Shown here: positions 6,121 to 51,307 of the stretch, piece after piece | How the letters are laid out: every line of letters starts with the position of its first letter | Numbering within the stretch: the stretch's first letter is position 1 | NCBI GenBank assembly: GCA_965178125.1 | Contig: OZ237736.1 | Location: forward strand, 1,488,001 to 1,552,000 | DNA from: Bilabrum cf. latius | Taxonomy: Eukaryota | DNA length: 64,000 bases | Direction: 5' to 3' | The notes under the pieces: generated by a model | Databases searched by the model: none | What the model was told of the DNA's origin: nothing | What the model saw: only the letters and a program-made list of their open reading frames with translations | Program-made: the position numbers and the translations under genes

Positions 6121-6350
6121 ACTCCTCTTTAACTCGATTTCAACTTATTCCGTCTTTGAAGTCTCTACCTTGGCGTTGGCATTTGACTTGTTCGAGAGAA
6201 GTTCTAAAACCAGGTTGGGCGAAATAGACTAGGTCGTTTCCCCCCAGCTCGTTCTGTTTGTCAGTCGCTGGTTTTCATTCTGCAGCCGCCAACCAGTTGG
6301 CCTGATACATAAACAAGTCACAAACGTGGAGCATCGACTGCCTAGTAGCC

Positions 6351-7946
6351 ATGGCTAAAGCCGGTCCAAGCTCCGAGGAGGTGATCGACCTTGTTCACAG
6401 CGACTTCAGCGAGAGCGACGCGTGCGAAAGTGATGTCGAAGCCCCCGACAGATGCTTCGGCAGAAGTGCAGGAACAAGACAAAGAACTCGCAGTAGCAGG
6501 CATGGAAACCGTAGTGTGTATTCGAACGGCAGGGCACGGTATACAAGTCGCGACCGGTCTGGTAGGTCTAGTCCCGTGTCCACTGTGGCGTCAGGTTCAT
6601 CCAGCAGCAGCACAGTATCGTAGCAGGTGGTGCAGCCATCGATCGAGGCAAGCTCAGGCGCAGCTGCAGGCGGCAGCAGCAGCGCCTCTCTGGGGCAGAA
6701 ACGCGGCAGGCAGACAGTTTCGTGTGTGGAGGCATCTGACGTCTCCTCGGATGGGAGGGCGAAGAGGCGGCGGTAGGAAGCAGCTGGAGGTGTCTCAGCT
6801 GACAGATATGAGTGCGAGGACTGCGGGAAAGTGCTGAGCAGCATGGCCAGCTTGAGGAAGCACATGTCCACTGTGCATCTGGGCGAGCGCAAGCACGAGT
6901 GCAGTGTGTGCGGCAAGGCATTCGGGCAGGCAGGCTCACTCAGGACGCACATGTCCACTGTGCATCTGGGCGAGCGCAAGCACGAGTGCAGTGTGTGCGG
7001 CAAGGCATTCGGGCAGGCAGGCTCACTCAGGACGCACATGTCCACTGTGCATCTGGGCGAGCGCAAGCACGAGTGCAGTGTGTGCGGCAAGGCATTCGGT
7101 GTGGCAGGCTCACTCAGGAGACACATGTCCACTGTGCATCTGGGCGAGCGCAAGCACGAGTGCAGTGTGTGCGGCAAGGCATTCGGGGAGGCAGGCTCAC
7201 TCAGGACGCACATGTCCACTGTGCATCTGGGCGAGCGCAAGCACGAGTGCAGTGTGTGCGGGAAGGCATTCGGGGAGGCAGGCTCACTCAGGACGCACAT
7301 GTCCACTGTGCATCTGGGCGAGCGCAAGCACGAGTGCAGTGTGTGCGGCAAGGCATTCGGGCAGGCAGGCTCACTCAGGACGCACATGTCCACTGTGCAT
7401 CTGGGCGAGCGCAAGCACGAGTGCAGTGTGTGCGGCAAGGCATTCGGGCAGGCAGGCTCACTCAGGACGCACATGTCCACCGTGCATCTCGGGGAGCGCA
7501 AGCACGAGTGCAGTGTGTGCGGCAAGGCATTCGGTGTGGCAGGCTCACTCAGGACGCACATGTCCACTGTGCATCTGGGCGAGCGCAAGCACGAGTGCAG
7601 TGTGTGCGGGAAGGCATTCGGGGAGGCAGGCTCACTCAGGACGCACATGTCCACTGTGCATCTGGGCGAGCGCAAGCACGAGTGCAGTGTGTGCGGCAAG
7701 GCATTCGGGCAGGCAGGCCATCTCAGGACGCACATGTCCACCGTGCATCTGGGCGAGCGCAAGCACGAGTGCAGTGTGTGCGGCAAGGCATTCGGGGAGG
7801 CAGGCTCACTCAGGAGACACATGTCCACTGTGCATCTGGGCGAGCGCAAGCACGAGTGCAGTGTGTGCGGGAAGGCATTCGGGGAGGCAGGCTCACTCAG
7901 GACGCACATGTCCACTGTGCATCTGGGCTAGCGTAAGCACGAATGA
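6351..7946 (+). CDS. Tandem C2H2 zinc-finger protein A (13 fingers) with N-terminal SIM-like motif and basic NLS-like patch
   Basis: Single frame from ATG 6351 to TGA 7944-7946 with three TAGs (6621, ~6774, 7929). One divergent finger (YECEDCGKVLSSMASLRKHMSTVH) plus 12 near-identical 29-aa C-x2-C-x12-H-x4-H units. Confidence 0.93.
6860..7943 (+). repeat. 87-bp coding minisatellite, ~12.5 copies (ZF array A)
   Basis: Unit CACATGTCCACTGTGCATCTGGGCGAGCGCAAGCACGAGTGCAGTGTGTGCGGCAAGGCATTCGGG(C/G)AGGCAGGCTCACTCAGGACG repeated almost identically. Confidence 0.97.
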
Positions 7947-34918: not shown

Positions 34919-37900
34919 ATGTCGGCTCGAGGTATGCGCCGCAGCACAGCGCAAGCTGTGGTAGATCGGGCTATCCAGCGAATCGAGGATCGGTCGGCCA
35001 GGATGCAGAAAGCTATGGTAAGCTCGATTTTCATGATTAAAAATTAACGCCCTCTCGACGGCTTCGTAACGTTAATAGGCTGCAACTAGCAAGTCCCTAG
35101 ACACCAAAGGTACGATCGGAGTATATGATCATGGCTCCAGCTTTGTTTCTGCGCTAAGGTTCGTGCCGCAGGACAAGGATGACCTCAAGAAGTCTCTCGA
35201 CCATGCTGCTGGAATCCTGTACGAATTGCGCACCTCAGAGCTTGGTCCAAGGGACTACTACTAGGTGTACATGGCTGCGTTTGGGCACATGCTGCAGCTG
35301 CAGATATTTTTTTAGCGTCAAGTATCCAAAGGATAGAGCGCCGCCGGGCTCTACACATCTGTGCAACACGCCGGTAACGTGCTGACAAGGCTGTGAGTTA
35401 CCCTACACCCGTGGTGCCCAACAAGCGCACCGGCTTGCGAGTTGGTAGTGCCTTGAGATATCGCCAGAGTGTCCTCCGTGGTGCTTGTCTGTTTCATCTT
35501 TCGAACTACAGGTACTTGATGGTTACAGCTGGTAGCGTGCTGATCCGCTCCGGCGAGGTCCCCGCCCACGAGGTGCTGCTGGATCTGCTGGAGCTTTGCA
35601 AGGGGGTGCAGCACCCCACCAGGGGACTCTTCCTCAGGTACTTTCTCGTGCAATCGCTCAAAGTGAGTGCATGGCTACTCGTTTTCCCCCAGTACTTGCT
35701 CCTGGCAGTGGCGCCCGAAACTTGCTGCCCGACGCACATGCCCGCCACCTGGCGCTATACTTGTTGCGGCGAACTTGATTCCACTCGTAACCCCCCTGCC
35801 GTACACCTTGCGCCCCGTGCCCCTGCAGGACAAGCTGCCCGAAAAGGACCGCCCTGACGACGCGCTGGCCTTCCTGGTGAAAGCGCTGCAGGAGACCAAC
35901 CACCTGTGGGTGCGCCTGCAGACCCAGAGCCCCGTCAAGTCGGTGCGGCAGCGCGAGAGCGACCGAAGGGACCTCCGCGTGCTCGTGGGGCAGGTCATCG
36001 ACTACATCGCCGCGCTCGAGGGCGTGGACCAGCGCTCGTACCGCAGTGCAGTGCTCCCAGCGGTGCTCAAGGAAGTGGTCGAGTGCAACGACAGGATCGC
36101 TCAGCTCTTCCTCATGGACGCGATCTTCAACGCGTTCCCCTTGCGCTGGCACGCCCAGACGCTCCCGCAGCTGCTGGAGACGATGGTGGGCCTTGTTCCC
36201 CGGGCGGACTGCAGGCTGCTCGTCAAGTCGCTGTGCTCGAGGCTGGCCGACGACTGCGACCTTCTCCGGGAGCCTGCCTCTGCCGGCCGCGTGGGCGGGC
36301 CCCGGGTCGATGTAGGGGGCGCCGCGTCGGGGGCGGGCTCTAGCAAGGGCGCGGGCGGCCTGGCGATGGTGGTGGCCGAGGATCAGGCGCCCGCGGAGCT
36401 GTGCGAAGACGTGTTCGGGCTGCTGTGCAGGGAGGTGGGCCGCATGATCGACGCGCGCGGGGAACACATGGGCGCGAGGGCAGTGGCGGAGTGCTACGAC
36501 TTCTTGGTGGGCCTGGCCCGGCGGGTGTACTGCAAGGAGGGAGACACGATCAGGGAGGAGGACGAGGGAGAAGAGGAGGAGGACAGGGATCTTGTTGGCG
36601 CTGCTGCTGCTGCTGCTGCTGCGGGGAGCGGTGGGGGTGGAGAGTCGAGGTACCGCAAGTGGCTGGGGCGCGCGGGGGCGCTGCTGCACGTGTGCGTGCC
36701 TCGCCTCGCTGCGGTGGGGCGCGAGATGGACTTCGCGGCGGTGGCAGCCACCCGCCAGCTGCTGAGCGCGATGGTCGCGCAGGCCCGCGGCCTGGGGGCG
36801 GGTGCCCTCGTGGCTGTCCTGAGGCTGAGGGGCCTGCGTGACATCCACCGCGCCCTCCCCCATAACGCCCGGCGCACGGTGTCACAGGACATTCTCATGG
36901 CACTGTTGCGCACCCGCGCGCCCATCAAGGGGGTGGCCACCGCCAGGGACGTGCTGAACGCGCTGGCTCCGTGCCTGAGAGACGAGCCCGATGGGCCGCT
37001 GGGTGTGTCCAGGGGCGGCCGCAGGGCCGGTGGCATGCGGCTGGACGAGGACAGCGGGGACGATCTCGGCTTCGAGCAGCGCCGCGTGGCTGCCCTGCTG
37101 CATCAGCTGGGCAAGGGTCAGGACGAGAGCAGCCCCAGGGAGGTGTACGACGTGCTGCGGGTGGCGAGGGAGGCCCTGGGTCAGGGGGGGCAGAAGAGGC
37201 TGAGCTACACGCTCCCCGCGCTGGTCGTCAGGGCGCTCCGGCTAGCGCAGAGCCTGGGGGCTGTCAAGAAAGGGGGCGAGGCGGATGATGGCGGTGAAGA
37301 CGGGGGTGAGGGTGCGAATGATGGGCTGAGCGGAGGCTAGGGCGGCATCACGCGGGCGGAGGTGTTCAAGTTCTGCTTTTAGACGTGCACCACGCTGGCG
37401 TCTGCAGGGGCCGCACCGGAGCGCGCGCTGCGGCTGCTGCTGGAGAGCGCGCTGGTGGCGCAGGGGGACTCGTTCGCGCACGAGTGCGTGCGGCGCGCTC
37501 TGCTCGTGTTCGAGGACGTGGCCTCGAGCAGGGCCGAGCCCAGGTGCCTGACCGCCGTCATCGCCACGCTTGGCCGGCTGGGTCCCAGCGGCGTGGGCGG
37601 GAGCAAGGCGTACCTTGACCTGGCCACTCGCTGCACCAAGACCACCACCAAGCTGCTGACCGAGGTGGACCGGGCCCGCTGTTCCCTGGCCGCTGCCAAG
37701 CTGTTCTGGGTGGGTCCCGACGGCTCCCGCACGATCACCGCGCCTGCGGGCGAGGGCAAGTCTGCTCCGGAGAAGGAGGAGGAGGAGGAGGGCGGCGTCA
37801 GGAACGGAGCGCTGCTGCTCCGCTGCCTGCAGCACGCCCTGGGTCAGGCCGAGGCGCAGGAGGAGGAGCCCTCGGCCGCCCTCTTCGTGGAAATCGCGGA

Positions 37901-38627
37901 TGCGTACGGCCACCACCTGGCCGCGGGCGTGCCCGAGGTGGTGCCCGACCACGTGACCATGCTGCTCAAGCACTGCGCGATGCTGTGCGCCTCGCAGCAG
38001 CTCAGCAGTGCGGATGGGTACATGGACCAGGGCCAGGAGGCTGCCGTGGACGGGGCGGCGGGACGGGCGCACCTGGACAGGCTGCAAGAGCACCTGACCG
38101 TGTGCCTGACGGGCGGCGGGGAGCGGGCGGCGCGGTGTGCGGGCGTGGACGTGTCGGCGGCGGACGAGCCCTCGAGGGAGGAGCTGGCCGAGACTCTGGG
38201 CCTGGACGCGGCGGTGGCCGCGCTTGAAGACGCGGGGCCGGGGCCGGGGCCGGAGAGCGAGGATGAGGATGAGAGACGGGATGCGCCTGCTGGTGGGGGG
38301 CAGGAGGCGAGAGGAGGCGCGAGCAGCAGCTCCCCGGCGGTGCCTTCGGATGCCGTGGAGGATCAGCCTCCGCCGCCGCCGAGCGGCCCGCGGCCTGCTG
38401 CAGCCGGGCGTGCCGGCGACAGCGCCAAAGAGACGCCGCAGGACGATGCCTCTGCTAGCCCAGTATCAGCCGCGGAAGAATCCAGTAAGGCAAGCGACGC
38501 TGCAGACTCGAGCGGCGAAGTAGGTGACGGCGCTGCTGGAGGCGACGCTGGTGCCGGTGGTGGTGACGACTGGGGGGACCTGGGCGGAGATGAGGGAAAC
38601 CCGTTCGGCGACGAAGATGGGCTGTGA
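34919..38627 (+). CDS. VPS35: Vacuolar protein sorting 35 (retromer subunit), divergent, 4 exons
   Basis: ELRTSELGPRDYY, LYTSVQHAGNVLTRLYLMVTAG, CKGVQHPTRGLFLRYFL, RRDLRVLVG, LSYTLPAL. Introns 35018-35171, 35393-35511 and 35663-35828; TAGs at 35262, 35313, 35334, 37338 and 37380; ends TGA. Confidence 0.92.
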
Positions 38628-38836: not shown

Positions 38837-41800
38837 TCAAGACTGGAGCTCAGCCGCCAGCTTCCTCCGAGCCCTCAAGTTGAGTCCGATCGCCCCACGC
38901 CACTGGACGAGATACTGCACTCTTCGGTCCCGCAGGTAGTGCCTCTTCGCGCACCAGAACTGCATGGTACGCACGCAGCGAAGATACCGTTCCTTGTCGC
39001 ACTCGCGCGCCGAGCGGAGAATGGCCTCCACCTGCCGCCGCTCCCCGCGCTCCCCGACCCCTGCCCAGATCCAAGCGGGCTGCACCTCCGCACTGGGCGC
39101 CGCTTCCGTGCCTGCCGATCCCACGGGGGCCTTGGGCCTGCCAGGATCCTCGCCCTGCTTGTCAGCTCCGTAGAATGCCTGCAGTGCCAGCGCCAGCCAG
39201 CTCTGGCACACCGGGTGCTCCTCCTCGACGGGCCCTCCGCACCGAGGCACGCCAGCCAGCACGAAGCTGTGCTGGTCCATGCCCATGGCCTGCAGAGTCA
39301 CCCCGCCGGCCGTGGCGAGGCCCGTGCCCCCGAGGTCCTCCAGGGTCATGCTCCCCTCGGGGGCATTCTCCTCGGGGTCCGATCCCTCCACAGCGGGGGC
39401 GGGTGCCTTCTCCTCTAGCAGCTGCAGCGACTTTTGCAGCCGGCGGAACACGAGCCCCGCGGGTGTCGAATCGAAGGTCATGCCATCCGCAGCGCACAGG
39501 GAGCGGAACCCTTCTCCTTCTCCTTCTTCTTCCTCCTGCTCTCCGCCGGTACTAGCCACTGCTATCGGCTGCGCGCCCCAACCGGGCGCACTCCCAGCCT
39601 GCGCCTGCCCTTCTTCCTCTCCGTCCTCGCCCGCCTTGCGGTCTTTCGCGTCGGCCAGTCGCCCGAACGCAGCCCTGGGGCTGGCTCCGCGCATGAGCAG
39701 CAGCAGCACCATGTCCAGCGCAGTGTTCGGGTCGTTGTCAAACTTTTCGGCTGCCTGCAGCAGCGCAACTTTCGGGGGCATGGATCGCCCATAGCCCCCC
39801 GGCATGCAGGTGGCCTAGTTGGGCCGAGCACCCGCTGAGAGGAGCGCAGCCACAAAGTTCAGGTCGCTGGCGTGCTCAGCGGCGGCTGGGAGCGCGTGCG
39901 TTGCGGCGCTGGCCAGACCCGGCCCGTTGGGAATCTCAGTGAGCATGGTGAAGAACGGGTTCATCTGCGCATCCTTGGCGTCGCGCGCCTCCCCTGCCGC
40001 ATCCCCCGTCACGTCAACGCCAGCATAAAAGTCCTCCTCCTCCTCGTCGCCCTCGCCCCCTTCATGTACCGCCACGCGCTCCTCGGGCCGCACCCTGTGC
40101 TCCACGCCGCGGTCCCGCGAGGGAACACAGTCCAAGGGCACCGGATCGCCGCCGTACTGCTGCACCGCGTAGGTCAGTGGGTAGCGCGTGTCTCTCCACG
40201 CTGCGGCGAGCATGGCGGTTGCGGGGCACGACACGCTGTCAGCCAGCATGTACTGCCCGCCAGCCGAGTCGCCCTCGCCCACCTCGCCAGTGAAATCGAA
40301 CCGAATCGAATACCCAGGTGCTGCGTCTCCCCCGGAACCGTCCTCCCCGGCTGCCGTCGTTGCGGTCGTGGTCTCGCCTTTCTCCTCCTTGCCCTCTCCG
40401 GCGGCCTCCCCGGGCTGGGCACTGTCCGCTTCCTCCTCGGCGCCCTCGATCTCGAACAGCCCATCGTCTTCCTCTTCCTCTTCCTCTTCCTCTTCCTCTT
40501 CCTCTTCCCCTGCGGGGTCACCAGACGAAGCTCCGCCAGCCCCGCTCGAGGGACCGACCGTGGCATCTCCCTTGGCGCCTGCTGCTTCCTTACCCTGCTG
40601 CTGGCCCTCCCTCTGCTCCTGCCCCTGCTCGACCCCCGCGCGCCGTGACTTCACCTCCTTGCCCATGGCAGACAGCAGGGCAGCGGCGATCCGCAGCCGA
40701 GCCGAGTCGGCCACGTCCACCGATGCCAGCGCGGCCTCCCTGGCCTGCAGCACGACCGGATCACTCTCGTCAAGCCCGCCCAGCACGTCCACCACGCCCG
40801 CCGTGGCAGCCATCGCATCGCCCACATTCACGCCTTGCTCGTCCCAGCCCAGCAGCGCGCCCAGTTCCTGCCTCCACTGCTGCAGGTCCCGCCTCTGCTG
40901 CTCGTGCAGGTCCCCGCCTCCGTGCTGCAGCGAGTCGAGCGCCTGCTACAGCACCAGGTCCAGCTGCGCGTCCATGCCCACCTCGATGCGGCCCTCCGCG
41001 CCCTCGGCCAGGTCTGCGTCAGCTTCAACGTCCGCATCACCAGCAGGCTTGGCGGGGTCTGCTGAAGCCCCTTCGGTACCGCCCTCTCCCTCCGGCGCCC
41101 TGCCGGATAGTATAGACCTGGCGTCCTCCACGAGCGCCTTCTCCCGCTGGCTGCGCTGCACCAGCTCCCTGAGGTGCATCGCCATGTTCTCCAGATGACT
41201 GGAATTCAGGGCGGCAGAGCCACGCCCTTTGCTCTGAGGTAGGCCCATCATGCCCCAGCTCGGCAGCTGCGACTGTGACTACCGCCCGCGACGAGCCCCT
41301 ACTCTGCGACTCACGCCGACCTTTGCCACGGGCCGCAGCTGGCCGTCCACCACCTGCAGTGAATCGACCTGGTAGTCCAGCTCGATACAGTTCTCCTCCA
41401 GAGCAATGTCCTGCTCCTGCTTGCACTTGTCCAGGGCCGCGCGGTTTGGCGCCATTACGACCAGCTGCGTCCCGTTCTGCCGCAGCAGGGTGGCCATCAG
41501 GGAGGGCCCCGTGGCCGCGGCATCTCCTCCTCCCGCCCCTGCCTCCTCCTCCTCCTTGGCCTCCTCCCCTTGTCCGGCCTGCTCCTCATCGCCCGTCTCC
41601 ACCTTGGGAGCGCCCTCCAGCCTGCGCCGCAGCAGTGCAGCGCGCACCCGACCGGCAAGCTCCAGCACCTCTCTGGCCGCCTCCTCCGCCTGGCCCTGCA
41701 GCTGCAGGGCCTGCGCCTTGGAGGGCACATTGCGGTAACCCCACATGCGGTACCCGCCCCCATCGTTTGCCATGGTGCCTGTGGACAGCTGCAGGGGCCG

Positions 41801-43150
41801 CTCGGAGGGGATGGGCGCGGCCCGTGCAGGGTTGAGCCACTGGATGCCTCTCGCGTGCGCCTCCCTGCGGACGAGTGCGAGGTGCTCCGCGTCCGAGCGG
41901 CGCTGTTCCCTGGCCGCGTGTCGGATGAGCGCGTTTGCAACCACGTTGTGCTTGGACTCGATGGCGTAGTGCAAGGGGTGCGCCCCCACGGAGTTCCTCG
42001 ATGCCGCCATGGAGCCGCTGGCCTGCGCGATGAGAGAGAGGCACTGCTCCGTCATGCCCTCGTCTGGTCTGCCGCCCCAGCCTGCCCGCTTGCTCAGGGC
42101 AGAATACTTGTGCAGGACTGTGCCCTTGTGGGAGCTGGGCGCCACGCCCACCATCTCGGCCAGCGTGACCAGCTGCTCCTGCCGCTTGCGCACGACCGTC
42201 CGAAGCATGCCGGCCATGCGGTAGTCTCCCGGGGCATACCTCCGAAGCACGATGTCGTCCAGCTGGCACATGGCCGCCTCCTTGTGTAGGCTCTTGGCCA
42301 GCCGCAGCTGCTTCTTCCGCATGCCCAGCCTGCTCCTGGAGCTGGCCTCGAAGGCTGCCTTGATGGCGGAGGTGCCCCTGAGCGTGACCTGGTGCACGAG
42401 GGGCTGCCCGCGGGCGTCCTTCACGGTCACGTCCGCGCCCAGCTGCAGCAGAGTCTGCACGCAGGCGACCCGGTCCTGCTGCACGGCCAGGGCAAGCGCC
42501 GTTTCCGCGGTCCTCGGCATGACGCAGTCCACGTCGTACTTGAGGTGCAACACACAGTAGCGAGCGGCTGCCGAGCGGCCAAACGCGGCGCACACGTGCA
42601 GGAGGTTCGCCCGAGACTCGTGGGACTCGCCTTCATCGCGCTGCGCGTAGCCTCCGCGGTGGTAACGGCGGCGTGCGTACTGCTGGCGCACATGAAAGTC
42701 GGCGCTCTGCGACGGCACCTTGAAATCCTGGCACTCCTCCTCGAGCAGACGCCGGAGCTGCTGGTGGTCCCGCCCCACCGCGCACTGCAAATAAGGCTTC
42801 AATTTGCGAAGTGCTACAAGAAACCCTTCGTCCGAGAGCGTGGCGTCTTCAGCGAGTCGCCGGATCTCGGTCGGGCCGTGGATCGCGATGCCGGACGAAA
42901 ATATTTCCTTTAGTGCTGCCGGCGCCGTCGGATCAGCGATGATGTTCACTGCGCAGCGCGCAGCCATTGGCGTATCTATTTCATCGCGCATCGTGGCATC
43001 CTCCTATTCAGGCGGCCGCATGGGATGCTGCGACGGATCTACTTTGGGAAGGCCGTGTGGGGCGGCCGCCTCCACAGCCACGCCACCCAGGACTTTCCGC
43101 GGGGCCTTTCCCCCTGTGGCTTTTCGCGCAGTCTATTTTGTACGGGCCAT
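38837..43150 (-). CDS. Ankyrin-repeat protein (~1437 aa) with N-terminal histone H3 tail mimic
   Basis: ATG 43150 encodes MARTK[TAG][15 protein letters not shown]. The frame runs via TAGs at 43135, 43006, 41281, 40948 and 39817 to TGA 38839-38837. Ankyrin repeats NLLHVCAAFGR, ETALALAVQQDRVACVQTLLQLGADV, HPLHYAIESKHNVVANALI, VAALLSAGARPN; no histone fold. Confidence 0.85.
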
Positions 43151-43490
43151 ACCGCTGCAGAGATTGGCAAACGCGGAGATGGTAATCTGAGGGATGGCAG
43201 CATTCTCGAAAGGGCACGACAATAGCGAGCATACGGAGATCTATACATCGAGTTTGCCAATCAGCATGCTTGAACATGTGTTGTTCTGATATACACAGAC
43301 TCACATGCTCAATCCTTGCCGCGTCGTATGTAGCACTTGTGTTCTTGCACCCAAATCGAGTCCACTGCCGGTGGCAGTCTCAAACGTGCACGCTACTGAG
43401 GCCCGATTTGGGCCCGCGGCAGGGGACACGGCGTGGATACCACTCGCTCTAAAAGTGATTTGGAACTCTGGCGACGTGCGCGAGTCAGGA

Positions 43491-46400
43491 TCACGACCCC
43501 GTCCGGTGCTTGTCTCGCAAAGCCCTGCGCAGGCGCAGCACCTCCTGTTCCAACTCTTCTCTGCTCATCGCGCTGACGGGGACCTCCTACGAGTCCGGCA
43601 ATGTCACCGCCAACCCATTCGTCGAAGCCGAGCCAGGAGCACAACTCCCAGCACCAGTGCCCTTTGCATCATGGGCATCCTCGCTGACCTAGTACTACCC
43701 TCTGGTGCTGGCGGGTGCAGACGCCCGAGACGCGCGCCCCACGGGTGCCACAAGACGCCTCTGCTCCCTGCCCGCCCAGGCGATCCCCATCGGCTCGACA
43801 GACGGGAGAGACGGGGGCGCGACAGCCGCGTGCCCTGCTGCTGGCTGGCCACTGGCAGGACGCCAGTCTCCCCCTCCCTAGTCTCCTGCCGCTGCAACGT
43901 AATCATCGTCCTGTTCCTCTTCTCCTTCCTTTTCTTCCTCCTCTTCTTCTTCCTCTTCGTCCCGCTCATCGATGGAGTCGTACGTCGAGCTGATCCCCAC
44001 TTGTGCCGATGGCCCTCCAGATGCTGTGCTCCCCGACGAGCCGTTCGCCGCCCCTGCCTGCATCCCTGGCCCAGATCCACCGCCCCCTACCCTGCCCCCG
44101 ACTTCGTCGATGCTGCCATACCCCATCGCAGGCGCCACCACCGTCCCAGGGGCAGCCGATACCACACGGTCAGCGCACCCAGCACCAGTGGCCGCACCAT
44201 CCACGGCGGCTCGCTCACGCTCCCGCTGCAGATCGTAGGGGGCGGCACCGGTCTCACCGCGAAGATCCGCCGGGCTGCTCCGATCCCAGATGGCCCCATC
44301 ATCCCCGAGGAACTCGTTGCCGCTGCCACTGGCAAGGTGCGGGCCAGCGGCGCGTGCGGTGCCCCACTCCATGGATGGCACGCGGGACCCAGCACCGCCC
44401 CCCCATCCACCGCCCGAGCTGCCGGAGCCTCCCGACCCTCCCTGGTCTGTGCTGACGCTCCCTTGCCGAGCCTCTGGCGTGTCCAGCCGGAAGATGCTAG
44501 GCGGAAGCACGCCTGCTAATTCGCTGCCACCGCTGCCTGCACCTGCCGCGCCACTGGAAGAGACAGACGTGCCAACCGACGCGGCCGATTGCCCTCCAGA
44601 GGAACCCTCGCTGGGCCGCGCTACATCGCCACCCCCAGCAAGGACCTGCTACTAGTTCGACACGCGCACGTCTGGCTGCATCGTGTGCATGCGGGGAATC
44701 GATCCAAGAGCATGCGGGTTGCCAGCGCGAAGACCAGCTCTCCCGGCAGTCTCTCGCATGATGATGGCACCGCCCTGCACTGAGCCGGGTTGGTGCCGAC
44801 GAGGAGGGGTCTGACTCTCGCCAGGGGCGCTCTGTGCCCTCTGAGTGGAGCCAGGGGAGAGGCCGCCGGACGAGGCTCGCACGTGCTGTGCCTCTTCTCC
44901 CTCCCCTGCGGGTGCTCGGACCCGAGTGGGCTGCAACACCGCGGCGTGCACCTAGCTCCCTCCATCCTGTGCAGCAGCCGAGTCCGCTGTTCCGCTCGAC
45001 CCTCCGCCGCCAGGAGCCACGGGGGCTTGCCACGATGTTGAGCTGCTGTCCATCCGCTCCACTCGATCACGAGTTCCGGTGACATCAGCCCGCAGCTCGA
45101 GCGTCTCTTGGATGTGCACTAGCTGCCGCTCCAGCTCCCTCGCAGTTGGACGAACGAACGGATCCACGCTCAGGCACTGCCGCACGATGCGGATCAGGCT
45201 GGGTGGGACTCCTTCAGGCCAACCCGCTGCCGTCACCGCGTTCCGCATCCGCTCATTCAGCTCCTCCCGAACCTGGCCAGCCTTGCTGGGCGGACTTTGC
45301 TCCACCGCACCCGCACCCGCACCCGCACCCGCACCCGCACCCGCACCTGCACCCACATCCGCACCGGATGCCGCCCCTCCGCCAGCCGCCTCTTCGCCCC
45401 CCTGGCCCTCCGCTGCCGCTCCGGCCTCGTCCAGGTCGTGTCCCATCTCAAGGTAGACCCTCTCCCTGACTCGGTGCCTCTCGCTGCTGGCCCGCTTCAC
45501 GCTCCAAGCCACACGATGGCGCTGCTTCTGCTTGCCAGCAGCGATGCGCTGCCTGAAGTGCCAGTCGAACAGTGGCCGGCCACTCACCAATTCATACAGA
45601 GTCGCGCCCAGCGCAAACACGTCGCCCGGACGCCCGTAGTCCCCAGCCTCAAACTCAGGGGGAGCGTACAGAAGGTCGGTTAGCATCCCAGCAGTCACCG
45701 CCGTCTCCATGCCCACGCGCCCCACCCCAAAGTCCGTCAGCTTGGCCACGGGTCCGTGCCCGACGAGGATGTTCTCCAGCTTAAGGTCGCGGTGCAGCAC
45801 CCCCAGCCTGTCGTGCAGGTGGGCCAGCCCGCCGGCGGACTGTGCCGCGAGCATGACCCGCGTGGGAATGTCAGGGTCCTCCTTCTTGAGCCAGCTGGTC
45901 ATGGACCCGAGATCCACGAACTCCATGGCGATCTGTAATGGGTACCCCGGCTGCATGACCACTCCGTACACGTCCACGATGCTAGGGTGCCTCGCCTCCG
46001 CGATTTTTTCAAGGATCTTGAGCTCGTTCTCTAGCGCCAGCGCTTCACGCTGCATGTCCCCGCGAGCGGTCTTGACCGCCAGCCGGATCCCGGGCAGCTG
46101 CATGGTCCGCGACAGCCACACATCGCCAAATGCGCCCCCGCCCAGCCGCTTCACCTTGCGAATCAGAGTCGGGTCCAGACGCATGAACCGTGGCAGGGCA
46201 GCGGACGCTCCCCCCCCGGCGCCCTCCTGCGCCACGTCTTCTTCGCGGAAAATCTCCTCCGCCAGCTGCCCGAAGTTCTGACGAAACTCATCGCTGTCCA
46301 TTCGCTGCCTCAGCTGCCGCTGCACCTTCGCGGATGCCTTGGGAGAGGCCTCGGCCGCCTCGATCAGGTACTCGACTGCGCCACCACGGGCCGCCGCCGC

Positions 46401-49400
46401 GGTGGCATCCAGCGTTCGGGTGCACTGCATTGCGAGCAGCTCCGGCCAGCAGGGCACTGCGGCTCGCAGCTCCTCCCGCAGCAGGGCAGATGTGGCCGCC
46501 CGAGCCTCTCTGTGGTCTACGACCTCCACGACCTCCCTGCGCGCCTCCTCCGCCCGATCCCTGGGCTCGTCCCTGCCCTCGGCTAGCAGCACGAGGCTCT
46601 CACCGCACGCGCGGGCTGCCTCCTCGAACCACTGGAACTGCTGCACACGCTCGCACAGCTTGGCGTGCTTCCTGTGGGCGAGGCGGCCCCCCTCCGCGGG
46701 AGCAGGGCCTGCCGCCAGCTCCCTGTCCTCGTCCGACGGGAGGTCGGGAGGCGGGGCCGTGACCACGAGCCAGAGCAGCCGCAAGATGTTGGGCCTGCGC
46801 AGCATCTGGGCCGCCTTGCGCCCAACGGGCATGGCCATCGGTCGCAGGGGGGCATCCCACCCCGCCCTCTCCGCATCCCGAAGCGCTCGCCGCCTGGAGC
46901 TGCGGATGTGCTGCGCGATGTGGAGGAAGGCCCACACCGACACGCAGGCCGAACACAGCCCCGGAGTCCACGGCGAGCGCTCTTCCTCGTATGAAGCTGC
47001 GCTGCCCGCGCTCGCACCCGTCCCCTCGGCGCCCGGCAGCCGCAGTCCCCTCCTCCCGGACTCTGCCAGGCGGCGGTGGCACGCCGGCGACACGGCCAGC
47101 CACCCGAGCGCCTGCGCTGCAGCGAACTGCCCGATCCTCGCGTCGTCCAGCTTGTTGTTCCTCTGCACCACGGCGCCGTCGTAGCCCGGGCCCCGCTCCA
47201 CGCTATGCTCGACGGCATCCGCCATGCTGCGCGGCAGGTGCGGCAGTAGCTCCTCCAGCTGGTCGTCCAGTGCCGCTGCCGCAATCCAGCGGACCGCGTC
47301 GGGGCGGACCAGCCGCGCGGACACGCTGCCGCCGGCCGCTGCCAGCGCTCGCAGCGCCACGAGCACAGTCTCTCGCGTCTTGTCGTCCTGGGGCCGGCGA
47401 GGGCCCCACAGCAGCAGCCCGAGCAACTGCCCGGCAATGTCGGCCTCGGCAATACGGTCCTGCAGCGCGCGCTCCAGCGGGGGATGTGCCGGGTCTGCTC
47501 GCCGCCAGCCTCCAGCTAGCTCGCCCACCACGGCGCACGCCAGCCGCGCGCTCTCAGGCAGCCCCGCCTTGCGCACCTCTGGGTCGGCTTGGCTCGCTGA
47601 ACCAAGCGCCGCCTTCACCAGAGGCAGTATGCCGGCAGACACGAGAAGCATAGCTGCTCCAGCGGATGCGTTCGTGTCTCCCACTGGAGTGTCGACGACA
47701 TTTGCCACTGGCTACGCGAATTGCAGGCAAATTTTCCAGGCGACGGGGCTGTGCGGATCAGCGGCCAGCCCGCCCACGAGGTCGCGCAGGCCCTCCGCCT
47801 CGGCGAGGACCTGGCAGGCGCGCTGCGAGTTGTTGCTGCGGAGTACCAGCTCCAGGATGTCCAGGGGCCCGCCTCCAGGGCTAGACGCGGGCCGCGCGTG
47901 AGGTGACCCGGCGTGGCTGTCGTCCGCCCGGCCCATTGCGAGGGCTTGCGTCTCGGCCGCCGCGTCAAGTGCAGCTCGTGCGAATCGGGCGGCACTAGCA
48001 GCGGCGGAGCCGGCAAGCAAAGGCAGGGCCCCGCTGGCCAAGCTCTGGAGCACCTCGTTGTCGTGGTGCAGCAGAGCAACCAGCGAGCGGGCGGCAGAGG
48101 CTGAGTGCAGAGGGGGGTGTGCATCATCGCCCGCTTGCGATAAACTGGCCACCGCGGCGGCAGCAGCCTCCAGCACGATAGAGAGTGTCGCTGAGGAAGC
48201 ACCCCCGGAAGAATCGGCCCTACCCAGAGCTTGCTCTAGGCACTTCACCGCTGCTGGCCCAGCCACCAGCGCCACGGCACTGCCGTACTTTTGCTTCCCG
48301 GCCACTGCCAGGCTGAGAGCCCGCAGTGCGCCTGCAAGGACCACATCCTCATGGTGGATTCCTGCATCAGCGGAGGCCGGTCCGTCTTGAGCCGCTGCCT
48401 GCAGGTACCTGCCGATGCATAGGGCCAGCGATCCCTCGCTTCTGCCCAGCCCGTCGTTTCCCTCATCGTGAGCGGCCCACGCGCGAACGACATCCATTGC
48501 CCACTCCTCGGCTGCCCTGCCCCCGCCTGCTTCACCACCAGCGCCGGCACCACTCTCCGCAGACCTAGACTACCCCTCCGCCAAGCTGGCTCCGAAGGCG
48601 CGAAATAGGGACACGTGCAGGCCGGCGTGTGCCCACATGCCGTAGCTCACCCCGCCAGTTCGAGCCGACTCCAGCACAAGTTCACGAGCAGGTCTATCTA
48701 GGGGGGCACTTGCCGCGCAATAGCTAGGCAACGGCACAGCTTCGAATATCCTGCGCCACGTGCTTGCATCCCCGATACAACTGTTCCTACCCGTTGGCTC
48801 GCTGCGCACCGCTGCCTCACACGCCCCCACACAAGCTGCTGCAAGCTCTTCCTGATGTCCCCCCAGAGACACGGCAGTGTCCCGCAAGTGGCCAGGCAGC
48901 TAGTACGCCAGCCGCAATAGCCGCACCGCACACGAAGCAGCGCTGACCGCCCCGATTCTGCACATGCCATCCTCAAAAACAGGCAGTGGCGCAATGCCAG
49001 GGCTATCTCGTGGAACGTTGAAGCCGCAACAGGTCTGCCGCAAGCAACCAGCCAGCTTAAGAAGCGACGGCACGACGCGGGCGCGGCACAGCGTGGCCAC
49101 CACCGCGACGCTGCCTTCGCTGGTTCTGCCGCCGCTGGCCTTGCTCCCGCCTCCTGTGCCTTTCGTAGGCTCTAGCTTTACTAAAGACCCTGCCCCCGTC
49201 TCGGTGAGCCTGTGCAACAGAATGGCTGCAAGCACACCCCCCGCCACCGTCGGATCCCTCCAATACAGGGATGCCACTGTAGGTGGTGCGACCTGGCCTG
49301 AAGCGGCCTGTCCGATACCTTCATCGTGTCTTGTAGTGCCCTAGACATCTGTTTTCTTCTCTTTCTGTCTGTCTCTTGGTGCTCCTTCTGCCTCGACCCT

Positions 49401-50246
49401 ACCGGTTTCCTGCCTTGGGTCCGGGCCGCAACCGGCGCCCGTGCACGCCGTTGCGATTGACTCCAGCCGCGCACAAGCAGCCTGAATCAGAGCAGCAAGC
49501 TATCGCGGGAGTATGAGCGATGACCCGCCTAGTAATGACGGCGCCGCCGGGCTTCTCGCGAGAGAGAGGAGCAAAACGAGGCTCGGCACGAGCACGGGCA
49601 CTGGTGCGGGCCGCTCTGACTCCGACTCGCGGGCGAGCACGGAGGGCCCCCCGGCGTCCTCTGGCAGAGCAGCGCTGCCACCAGCACCGGCCCCGATACA
49701 CACGAATAGATGGTTCTGTATAATCCGGGCAACGGCGTCGCCTGTACCTCTAGACAAAGCGACCGGTCGCACTGCCGGCATGCGCGCAAGCCGTATCGCT
49801 GATTCAATCGTTGTGGCTGCCCGGTCTGCCTCAACGTCGTCCTTGTAGCCGCTTCCGTCTGGAAGCGGTGACATGCACGAAACAAGGGCATCCCACTTCA
49901 CCGGCGAACCAGCCAGCGAACGGCCGCTTTTTCCTGCGAATGAAGCTGCCAGCAGCAGCCCGGCACTCCAGCTAAAGAACGGGTCCCGGCCAGCAGGTGG
50001 TGCGGCCTCTTTTCCACCTGTCTTGATCGCGACGCAATCTGGAAGCTTCTTGCCAATCTTTCTCATGGATTTCACTGCTGCAGCCTTCTTCCCTTCGCTG
50101 ATGATGTCGCACAACTTGAGTGCTGCCGTCCAGCTTGCCCGGGGATCGCTCCCAACGGCCACTTGAGCTGTCTCATCGATGTCCTACTCCAATGGCGGAG
50201 ATGGTCCACTCAGTAAACTCAATATATTTTGCAGCTCATGCTACAT
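43491..50246 (-). CDS. Large (~2250 aa) protein kinase with ARM/HEAT-like helical N-terminal region
   Basis: Kinase at ~46160-45100: LGGGAFGDVW, LAVK, ENEL, HRDLKLEN, DFG, YAPPE, DVFALG. Seven track ORFs share one frame joined by TAGs; ends TGA. Start 50246 inferred; ARM call rests on Ala/Leu-rich helical pattern only. Confidence 0.78.
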
Positions 50247-51307
50247 TTGGTATTATGAGAAGCATTTCTGGGGAGAAACCTCAATGGATTCGGAGTGCGG
50301 ATAGAAACAGGCAAGCAGGATGAATGATCAGTCCTTGGAATTCATATTCGTCTTCCAAGTGTTATGTTGGCCATATTGTTTATGGGCTTGGTTGCTGTAT
50401 GCGCCGCACAAGGAGCTAGCAATGATACAGTGCGTGGTTGCACCTGCGTATCCGACTGCGAGACTACATTTGGATTTCTTGCTGCGTGGTGCTACACTAG
50501 CCCGCCAGGGGGTCCCGCTCCAATAGACCCATGTGGATAGAGGCTGCAAGCGCAAAACGCGTATTGGGACTACTGCTTGGAGGGTGCTGAGCAGACACAA
50601 GTGTTTCGGACTTTCAGATGTGAGGTATCGATGATATGTCTGGCATTGATGGAAACGAACAGAAATTAGAATGACGCCATTAAGAAGTTTCTCAATTACT
50701 CTCTTCCGCAGCGATGTACTGGGAACTAGTGCGTTGGACTGTGATGATCTGCTCCACTGCCTTCGGTGCTTTTGCAATTTACGCTTCTTCCGCTTGCGCT
50801 ACGCGCGGAATGCTAGTTCTTCCACTCGCTGTAGTGGCTTCAATCAGTGCGTATGGAGCCTTGATGAGTTTTATAGCTGGGCTAGTGGTATTCTTACCGG
50901 TGACATAGATATTCTTGGCGATGCCGTACGCATTGGGCCGGTTGGAAGTAGCTTTTCTAGCCGCAGCGCTTTCTCTAGTGCTGTTATACCTTCATTCCGG
51001 TCGAGGGGCGCTGCCTATGCGTAGAGAAGTGGGGGCAGGCAAGATGCCGCCGTCATCTGTGGCGAGTGGCTCCGCCACCGGGACATGATCTCGGCGATCC
51101 GAACTGCTACCAGTTGTAGTACTGGCTCGACCACTAGTGCATGGAGCGCTCGCACTGGCCACAAGCTAAAGGGAAGTGGGTCACTATACTAGTAGACAAC
51201 AGGCAATATTGTTTCAACACGTGCCAAAGTACGCGGGAAGCAGGCAGGCACTATAGCCCACGATGGAGGTGGACGACACCCCCAAGTGCATAGAGCCCAC
51301 GATGAGC

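Follow-up and report, generated by a model that had tools for sequence, protein, structure and literature searches.

A copy of the histone H3 tail at the predicted N-terminus of a protist ankyrin-repeat protein, a putative histone mimic

Why does an ankyrin-repeat protein without a histone fold begin with the residues of histone H3, and does the cell use such a beginning? The question is raised by a stretch of 64,000 nucleotides from Bilabrum cf. latius (GCA_965178125.1, contig OZ237736.1, positions 1,488,001 to 1,552,000), here called the window. Its minus strand at 43150-43088 reads ATG GCC CGT ACA AAA TAG ACT GCG CGA AAA GCC ACA GGG GGA AAG GCC CCG CGG AAA GTC CTG. With TAG translated as glutamine, this is Met followed by 20 H3-like residues starting MARTK(Q), and it opens a long open reading frame (ORF). 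Codon numbers count Met as 1 (Q6, K10, A11), and H3 numbering is one lower (Q5, K9, S10A); Q6 is the TAG at 43133-43135. The answer held with modest confidence is that the gene is a real, lineage-specific ankyrin-repeat scaffold, whose mature N-terminus copies H3 residues 1-20 and acts as a mimic of the H3 type.

43088..43150, minus strand: start codon and 20-residue copy of the H3 tail, based on the sequence, the H3 match counts and tblastn; kept as MARTKQT..KATG in the metagenome locus L001
38837..43150, minus strand: whole ORF, 1437 codons plus a TGA stop (38837-38839), with five in-frame TAG, no TAA and several acidic runs; its ortholog P0001 is 88% identical

The tail and its conservation as a peptide

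An earlier sequence-only reading of this DNA reported a large ankyrin ORF that opens with an H3 tail, and both the sequence and the frame are as it described them. Identity to the H3(1-18) peptide printed in PMC8166343 is 17/18, with S10A as the sole difference. The span then given, 43094-43150, covers 19 codons, and the H3-like stretch actually runs to 43088 (L21). Against canonical H3 (the first 136 residues of P0014), the tail after Met is identical at 18 of 20 positions and differs by S10A and Q19V. Canonical H3 searched by tblastn against the window is identical at 22 of 31 residues at the tail (E 1e-7). As a control for chance, every position of all six window frames was compared with H3(1-18), and the runner-up match is 8/18. 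The tblastn match reaches residue 31 (43058-43087, residues 22-31) and ends in ..AAP where H3 has ..SAP, which faintly suggests that the H3 fragment taken up may once have been longer than 20 residues.

The rest of the protein is not a histone, as the sequence-only reading had also stated. Pfam recognizes only ankyrin repeats in it, none of the six window frames contains an H3-fold motif, and tblastn with H3 finds nothing better than E 0.1 over the 64 kb apart from the tail. The tail as exon 1 of a genuine H3 gene was ruled out, there being no exon with a histone fold within the 64 kb. The tail also runs on into an ORF that is conserved over its whole length in P0001 and L001, which argues against an H3 exon as well.

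Relatives of the gene are few. A search of 5.8 billion proteins gave one long relative, P0001, with 1408 aa and 88% identity. The full HMMER search with residues 1-180 gave P0002 (105 aa, 72% identity, starting at the equivalent of M54) and P0005 (79 aa, 45%). An initial scan of metagenomes, made with alignment A1, turned up no relatives. Through P0002, a distant ortholog was reached in the metagenome locus L001 (contig Ga0136560_1007336), with the N-terminus MARTKQTQQKATG in the same frame. Its frame reads ATG GCA CGT ACG AAG CAG ACC TAG CAA AAA GCT ACC GGT GCG..., translated as MARTKQTQQKATGAGSAEGGVPAQQEPAV, and continues to the M54 equivalent. The L001 ORF has 1154 codons, is open-ended, encodes ankyrin repeats and contains 10 in-frame TAG. 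An ORF upstream of it ends like the C-terminus of the kinase that lies upstream in the window; the gene order is thus conserved, which supports orthology.

The comparison of the window with L001 carries the main argument. Over the whole gene (1126 aligned codons), amino-acid identity is 60%, the proportion of differing synonymous sites (pS) is 0.74, which is saturated, and that of non-synonymous sites (pN) is 0.28. In codons 2-7, 5.0 of 5.0 synonymous sites differ and 0 of 13.0 non-synonymous ones, and the differences (GCC/GCA, ACA/ACG, AAA/AAG, TAG/CAG and ACT/ACC) are all synonymous. Three more synonymous-only differences are present in K10-A11-T12-G13. Codons 2-13 together have 8.0 synonymous differences (Sd), 3.0 non-synonymous differences (Nd) and a pN of 0.116; the R3 and K10 codons are unchanged, the amino-acid changes sit in codons 8 and 9, and the first 13 residues agree at 11 positions. 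Because the differences in codons 2-7 are synonymous only, despite saturation, the conservation is at the level of the peptide. Constraint on the nucleotides themselves, such as a splice site or a Kozak context, was considered and rejected, since 8 of the 12 codons 2-13 differ synonymously only.

The residues constant in both lineages are A1-R2-T3-K4-Q5-T6 and K9-A10-T11-G12. S10A is common to both (GCC vs GCT), which fits the earlier view of this substitution as a meaningful change. By this comparison of two lineages, the H3-like N-terminus is old, and purifying selection is seen to act on the peptide and not on the DNA, most strongly on A1-T6. Very probably, then, the tail is translated and under selection as a peptide. 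Convergence does not credibly explain the eight or more additional H3 residues of the window, so the common ancestor most likely had the whole copy, with Ala already at position 10. The distal tail would then most likely have decayed in the lineage of L001.

Message structure, start codon and the reading of TAG

A selected peptide requires a message that includes it. Four public runs (X1, X5, X6 and X8) were compared over 42300-43700. X5 and X6 belong to two studies and match the window without a single difference; in each of them, one contig connects 43305 straight to 43154. The parts of the message so defined are the following.

43305..43330, minus strand: 5' untranslated exon 1, minimum extent seen, from X5 record 2 (43330-43305) and X6 record 7 (43326-43305), both joined to 43154
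43155..43304, minus strand: 150-nt intron of the 5' untranslated region, GT..AG (cat/GTGAGT ... ctgcAG/cggtATG), skipped by the X5 and X6 contigs; its plus strand ends are CT..AC

The X5 and X6 contigs are best read as spliced mRNA. X1 is identical to the window, retains the 150 nt and is possibly the window's own source. X5 record 2, a contig of 1620 nt, extends from 43330 through both the joint and the tail to positions past 42300, and by its length it would carry the tail and part of the ankyrin-coding region in one contig, as expected of a transcript leading from the 43150 region into the ankyrin part. Both contigs begin upstream of 43094, and not downstream of it as a transcript without the tail would. 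The intergenic positions 43331-43473 are essentially without coverage in these runs, and the upstream gene is a separate contig of different depth.

The splice, so read, also determines which AUG comes first. Six ATGs lie between the stop of the upstream gene (43491-43493) and 43150, of which five are within the intron and one straddles the donor junction with its G on the intron side; from that stop to the donor site, the minus strand has no ATG save the straddling one. All six are removed by the splice, and ATG 43150 is therefore the first AUG downstream of the upstream gene's stop and the first of the spliced message, ahead of the later ATGs that the earlier reading had named as competing starts. 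The intron ends 4 nt before it. Purine at -3 and G at +4 make a good start context; position +4 is G in both the window and L001, and position -3 is G in the former and A in the latter. The arrangement 'tgcag + 4 nt + ATG' is present in L001 too, which suggests that L001 may also have a 5' intron.

The coding sequence itself points the same way. The called start 'M' of P0001 aligns with V26, and residues 27-53 are identical to those of the window. X8 is a close relative, whose alignment is gapless over 42300-43209 and breaks up further upstream; among its substitutions listed, those at 43058 and 43061 are synonymous, and that at 43080 gives V24E. The identity of residues 27-53 in P0001, together with the synonymous changes of X8 at 43058 and 43061, indicates that translation begins upstream of M54.

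The tail is continuous only if TAG is read through. Six long domain-bearing ORFs of the window were counted: two kinases, an EF-hand protein, a GT7 galactosyltransferase, a Zn2Cys6 protein and the tail-bearing ankyrin gene. In all, TAG occurs 59 times and TAA twice within their frames, and TGA, the only stop seen, closes each of the six. TAG clearly serves as a sense codon here. Of the five TAG codons in the ankyrin gene, four face Gln in L001 (CAG, CAA, CAG and TAG) and one faces Ser; P0001 aligns with four of the five and has Gln at three of them. Conversely, just 3 of the 10 TAGs of L001 are opposite Gln in the window. Glutamine is the best reading of TAG, with moderate comparative support. 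The TAG-encoded Q5 claimed earlier agrees with this, and the Q6 codon itself faces CAG in L001. No tRNA genes, and so no suppressor tRNA, were found in the window. The G+C content of the window is ~65%, which is unusual for lineages where TAG and TAA encode Gln. Since the TAG at codon 6 hides the tail from standard ORF calling, searches of proteomes for histone tails should use the correct genetic code.

Function of the tail and its place among histone mimics

Selection has kept the first residues, and the cell therefore probably uses the tail as an unusually complete histone mimic. In the proposed mechanism, the 5' end of an H3 gene would have been captured in the common ancestor, with S10A arising early and the distal part decaying later in one lineage. 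Methionine aminopeptidase would remove Met1, Ala being the next residue, and thereby expose a free Ala1-Arg2-Thr3-Lys4. The exposed end could be bound by modules for the H3 N-terminus, namely PHD fingers, WD40 proteins of the WDR5/RbAp48 type, H3K4 methyltransferases and demethylases. Residues 7-20 are intact in the species of the window, where the enzymes of K9, K14 and K18 may act on the tail as well. The ankyrin scaffold would thus be tied to the chromatin-modifying machinery, or would rival nucleosomal H3 for it. The outcome would be an N-terminal histone mimic of the H3TM or SNAG type (both described below), about five times longer.

That the tail acts through readers or writers of histone tails is a putative role, given somewhat better than even credence from the sequence comparisons. 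Its most likely form, by analogy with known mimics, would be a handle or a decoy for H3-tail readers and writers. A bolder version is offered only tentatively: in some protists, a soluble ankyrin scaffold may keep a full, literal H3 tail so that the histone code has a substrate away from chromatin, served by the same writers and readers as the nucleosomes. If so, the scaffold would report or buffer the activity of chromatin modifiers, or bring reader complexes to non-chromatin sites.

Several points weigh against the mimic. In L001, codons 8-9 have changed A7-R8 (H3 numbering) to Q-Q, and from codon 14 onward (residues 13-20) the sequence is unlike H3. What both lineages retain is just the K4 part and K-A-T-G, and a function of the complete tail therefore cannot be general. 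The earlier expectation that an ortholog would keep the tail under purifying selection holds for the start of L001 and fails for residues 7-8 and 13-20; the emphasis it placed on K9, K14 and K18 is likewise weakened, with K9 kept but its A7-R8 context lost, and K14 and K18 themselves gone from L001. The GC content at third codon positions (GC3) is 0.55 in the tail vs 0.80 in the whole gene, and just 6% of 20-codon windows are equally low. The starts called for the orthologs lie farther downstream (V26 in P0001, M54 in P0002) and lend the tail no support; a gene caller stopping at TAG would yield such starts, so that the database starts are uninformative on the tail either way. X8 has 10 further substitutions that are unplaced, any share of which may fall in the tail. 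The kinds of the four runs were guessed by a tool, with no run on record as RNA and X5 labelled 'RNA? (probably DNA)', and contigs cannot reveal transcript ends or levels. As a separate observation, the tail is rich in codons that are rare within the gene (3 of its 9 AAA and 2 of its 5 ACA, plus CGT, CGA and TAG), which could be an effect of the 5' end or a trace of the tail's origin.

Among other explanations, the one that survives best, though unlikely, is a targeting signal. The N-terminal tail of H3 acts as a nuclear import signal, and the tail in the window is basic and lies at the extreme N-terminus. It might therefore bind importins or histone chaperones as H3 does, for nuclear import or delivery, with no mimicry of the chromatin code. 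However, in the conserved residues 1-7 and 10-13 only R2, K4 and K9 are basic, and L001 no longer has K14, K18 or the remainder of the basic stretch, contrary to what a lysine-rich import signal would keep. A generic basic signal also needs no exact identity to H3.

Still less probable is an evolutionary relic, in which a 5' fragment of an H3 gene became fused in frame without consequence, and the working protein starts at M54 or ignores its first 21 residues. The linker behind the tail is unconserved and unalignable, with 32 codons in the window vs 16 in L001, and the decayed distal tail, the downstream gene calls at V26 and M54 and the rarer codons and low GC3 of the tail all suit such an origin. 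Yet with a gene-wide pS of 0.74, a neutral relic would be unrecognisable, whereas codons 2-7 have no non-synonymous difference and K10-G13 differ synonymously only. The position of ATG 43150 as first AUG of the spliced message, its purine at -3 and G at +4, and the evidence from P0001 and X8 for translation from upstream of M54 also stand against a relic. The weakest alternative, very unlikely, is that the protein's own ankyrins read the tail, as an autoinhibited scaffold opened by tail modification: ankyrin repeats of G9a/GLP bind H3K9me1/2 through an aromatic cage in the groove of the repeats, and tail and repeats share one chain here, but the A7-R8 context of K9 is unconserved in L001, and Pfam sees about two repeats at residues 179-245 and a weak one near 390.

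The candidate mimic can be compared with several known systems. The closest are the N-terminal mimics of H3 (H3TMs) described by Chen et al. 2021 (PMC8166343), among them VRK1, BCL11B, TSHZ1, PCLAF, HIVEP1, MEF2C and MAPK8. They are defined there as iMet-Z1-R2-X3-K4, where iMet is the initiator Met and Z is a small residue permitting Met removal, and proteins that start with iM-Z-R-X-K bind NuRD and readers of H3K4me3 in vitro (PMC8166343). The same paper states that Ala after the initiator Met permits its removal, and that PHD fingers need the free Ala1 with R2 and K4 (PMC8166343). The protein in the window begins M-A-R-T-K at 43150-43136, and L001 starts in the same way. Its N-terminus is a predicted one, based on the AUG that comes first after splicing and on peptide-level selection on codons 2-7, and Pfam gives ankyrin only, with no histone-fold match in the window. 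Like the H3TMs, it is a non-histone with an initiator Met, a small residue and R-X-K, and Met removal would expose an H3-like end for PHD or Tudor readers and NuRD. In contrast, the H3TMs share a motif of four residues, whereas 18 of 20 H3 residues are present here. Moreover, the H3TMs are human transcription factors and kinases with in vitro binding, and this protein is a protist ankyrin scaffold with a reassigned TAG that is known from sequence alone.

SNAG repressors (SNAI1, GFI1 and INSM1) use an N-terminal peptide that docks in the H3 cleft of LSD1 and serves as a hook for a chromatin enzyme, and the residues reported as needed for LSD1 binding are P2-R3-S4-F5 ... R8-K9 (PMC5066116). The N-terminus in the window is A-R-T-K-Q-T and is thus not a SNAG domain. 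The tail may work like SNAG without being a member of that group. Both are N-terminal mimics of the H3 tail; SNAG is a structural mimic, whereas the tail here is near-identical to H3.

Shorter H3-like motifs on non-histones include ARKT of G9a, ARTK of PRMT6 and ARSK of influenza NS1, which are written and read like H3K9 or H3K4 (PMC8166343). Unlike the tail in the window, they have four residues, are internal or C-terminal, and are without the free amino group of Ala1. Histone H3 itself (PF00125) has the same residues 1-20 save S10A and Q19V, and differs by its histone fold. By family, the protein is an ankyrin-repeat protein (PF12796/PF00023), with both Pfam models above their curated cut-offs in it and in its orthologs.

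The claim that known histone mimics span only a few residues stands for those found in print, which are four-residue motifs or SNAG look-alikes; N-terminal H3TMs are already a described class, which makes the tail less unprecedented than that claim implied. A full-text literature search, in which supplementary files (e.g. Table S1 of PMC8166343) were not covered, found no report of a cellular non-histone protein with an H3 tail of ~20 residues. With region 1-40 as the query, long proteins of 790-2515 aa were searched for the tail, which gave 26 candidates, none of them at E <=1; the sensitivity was low, and the result is not evidence of uniqueness. The present case is a cellular, non-viral protein with 18 of 20 H3 residues at a predicted free N-terminus, beyond the four-residue or structural mimics in print. 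Its two lineages show the part on which selection insists, ARTKQT and K-A-T-G with Ala for S10 in both, and form a natural experiment on which tail residues matter off the nucleosome. For a eukaryote that has been little studied, the tail also offers a ready bait with which to find readers and writers of the H3 tail.

The HMMER search also returned short proteins with three or four internal copies of the H3 tail: P0006, P0009 (Allacma fusca), P0012, P0015, P0019 (Daedalea quercina) and P0020 (Peniophora sp.). The named sources are two basidiomycetes (Daedalea quercina and Peniophora sp.) and a springtail (Allacma fusca). The copies are spaced by Ser, Pro or acidic stretches, without any Pfam family or histone fold, and the proteins are annotated as hypothetical, unnamed or uncharacterized. 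They resemble the protein in the window in having long literal stretches of the H3 tail on non-histones. In contrast to it, they are short and disordered, have internal copies, keep S10, lack ankyrins and are unrelated to this gene. Judged by their sequences, they may form an undescribed class of multi-tail histone mimics.

The remainder of the protein and the window

Downstream of the tail, the protein consists of a variable linker, a conserved region and the ankyrin repeats, and a kinase gene lies upstream.

42992..43087, minus strand: linker, codons 22-53, variable in length (32 codons here, 16 in L001), with the TAG of Q49 at 43004-43006
42611..42991, minus strand: conserved N-terminal region, codons 54-180, without a Pfam family; P0002 (72%) and P0005 (45%) match only here, and pN vs L001 is 0.219
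42416..42616, minus strand: ankyrin repeats, residues 179-245, from Pfam; the same families are found in P0001 and the L001 protein
43491..50327, minus strand: upstream neighbour, a protein-kinase gene (Pfam Pkinase, E 6.8e-33) with the stop TGA at 43491-43493

At residues 179-245, Pfam gives Ank_2 with E 1.1e-9 and 39.2 bits (cut-off 27.3) and Ank with E 2e-6 and 28.2 bits (cut-off 21.1). Beyond the ankyrin repeats and the conserved residues 54-180, Pfam recognizes nothing in the protein. For residues 1-507 of the ortholog, an AlphaFold2 model built from the 3-row alignment A3 has a mean predicted local distance difference test (pLDDT) score of 42.5, with no residue at 70 or above. Residues 101-147 (42710-42850, minus strand) resemble a unit of ~57 residues that is repeated in P0004, a Metallophos-NACHT protein of 1540 aa. 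The likeness (41% identity, E 1.1e-10 over 4 stretches) may reflect a common helical repeat or mere compositional resemblance.

Two further ORFs of the window deserve mention. The ORF at 6306-7943 on the plus strand encodes 13 C2H2 zinc fingers in near-identical units of 28 residues (HLGERKHECSVCGKAFG.AGSLRTHMSTV), and by the likeness of its units the array looks like a very recent tandem expansion. At 35667-38624, also on the plus strand, a match to Vps35 begins at profile position 158 of 726. The N-terminal part of that protein must therefore sit on one or more upstream exons, and introns thus split at least some coding regions in this window.

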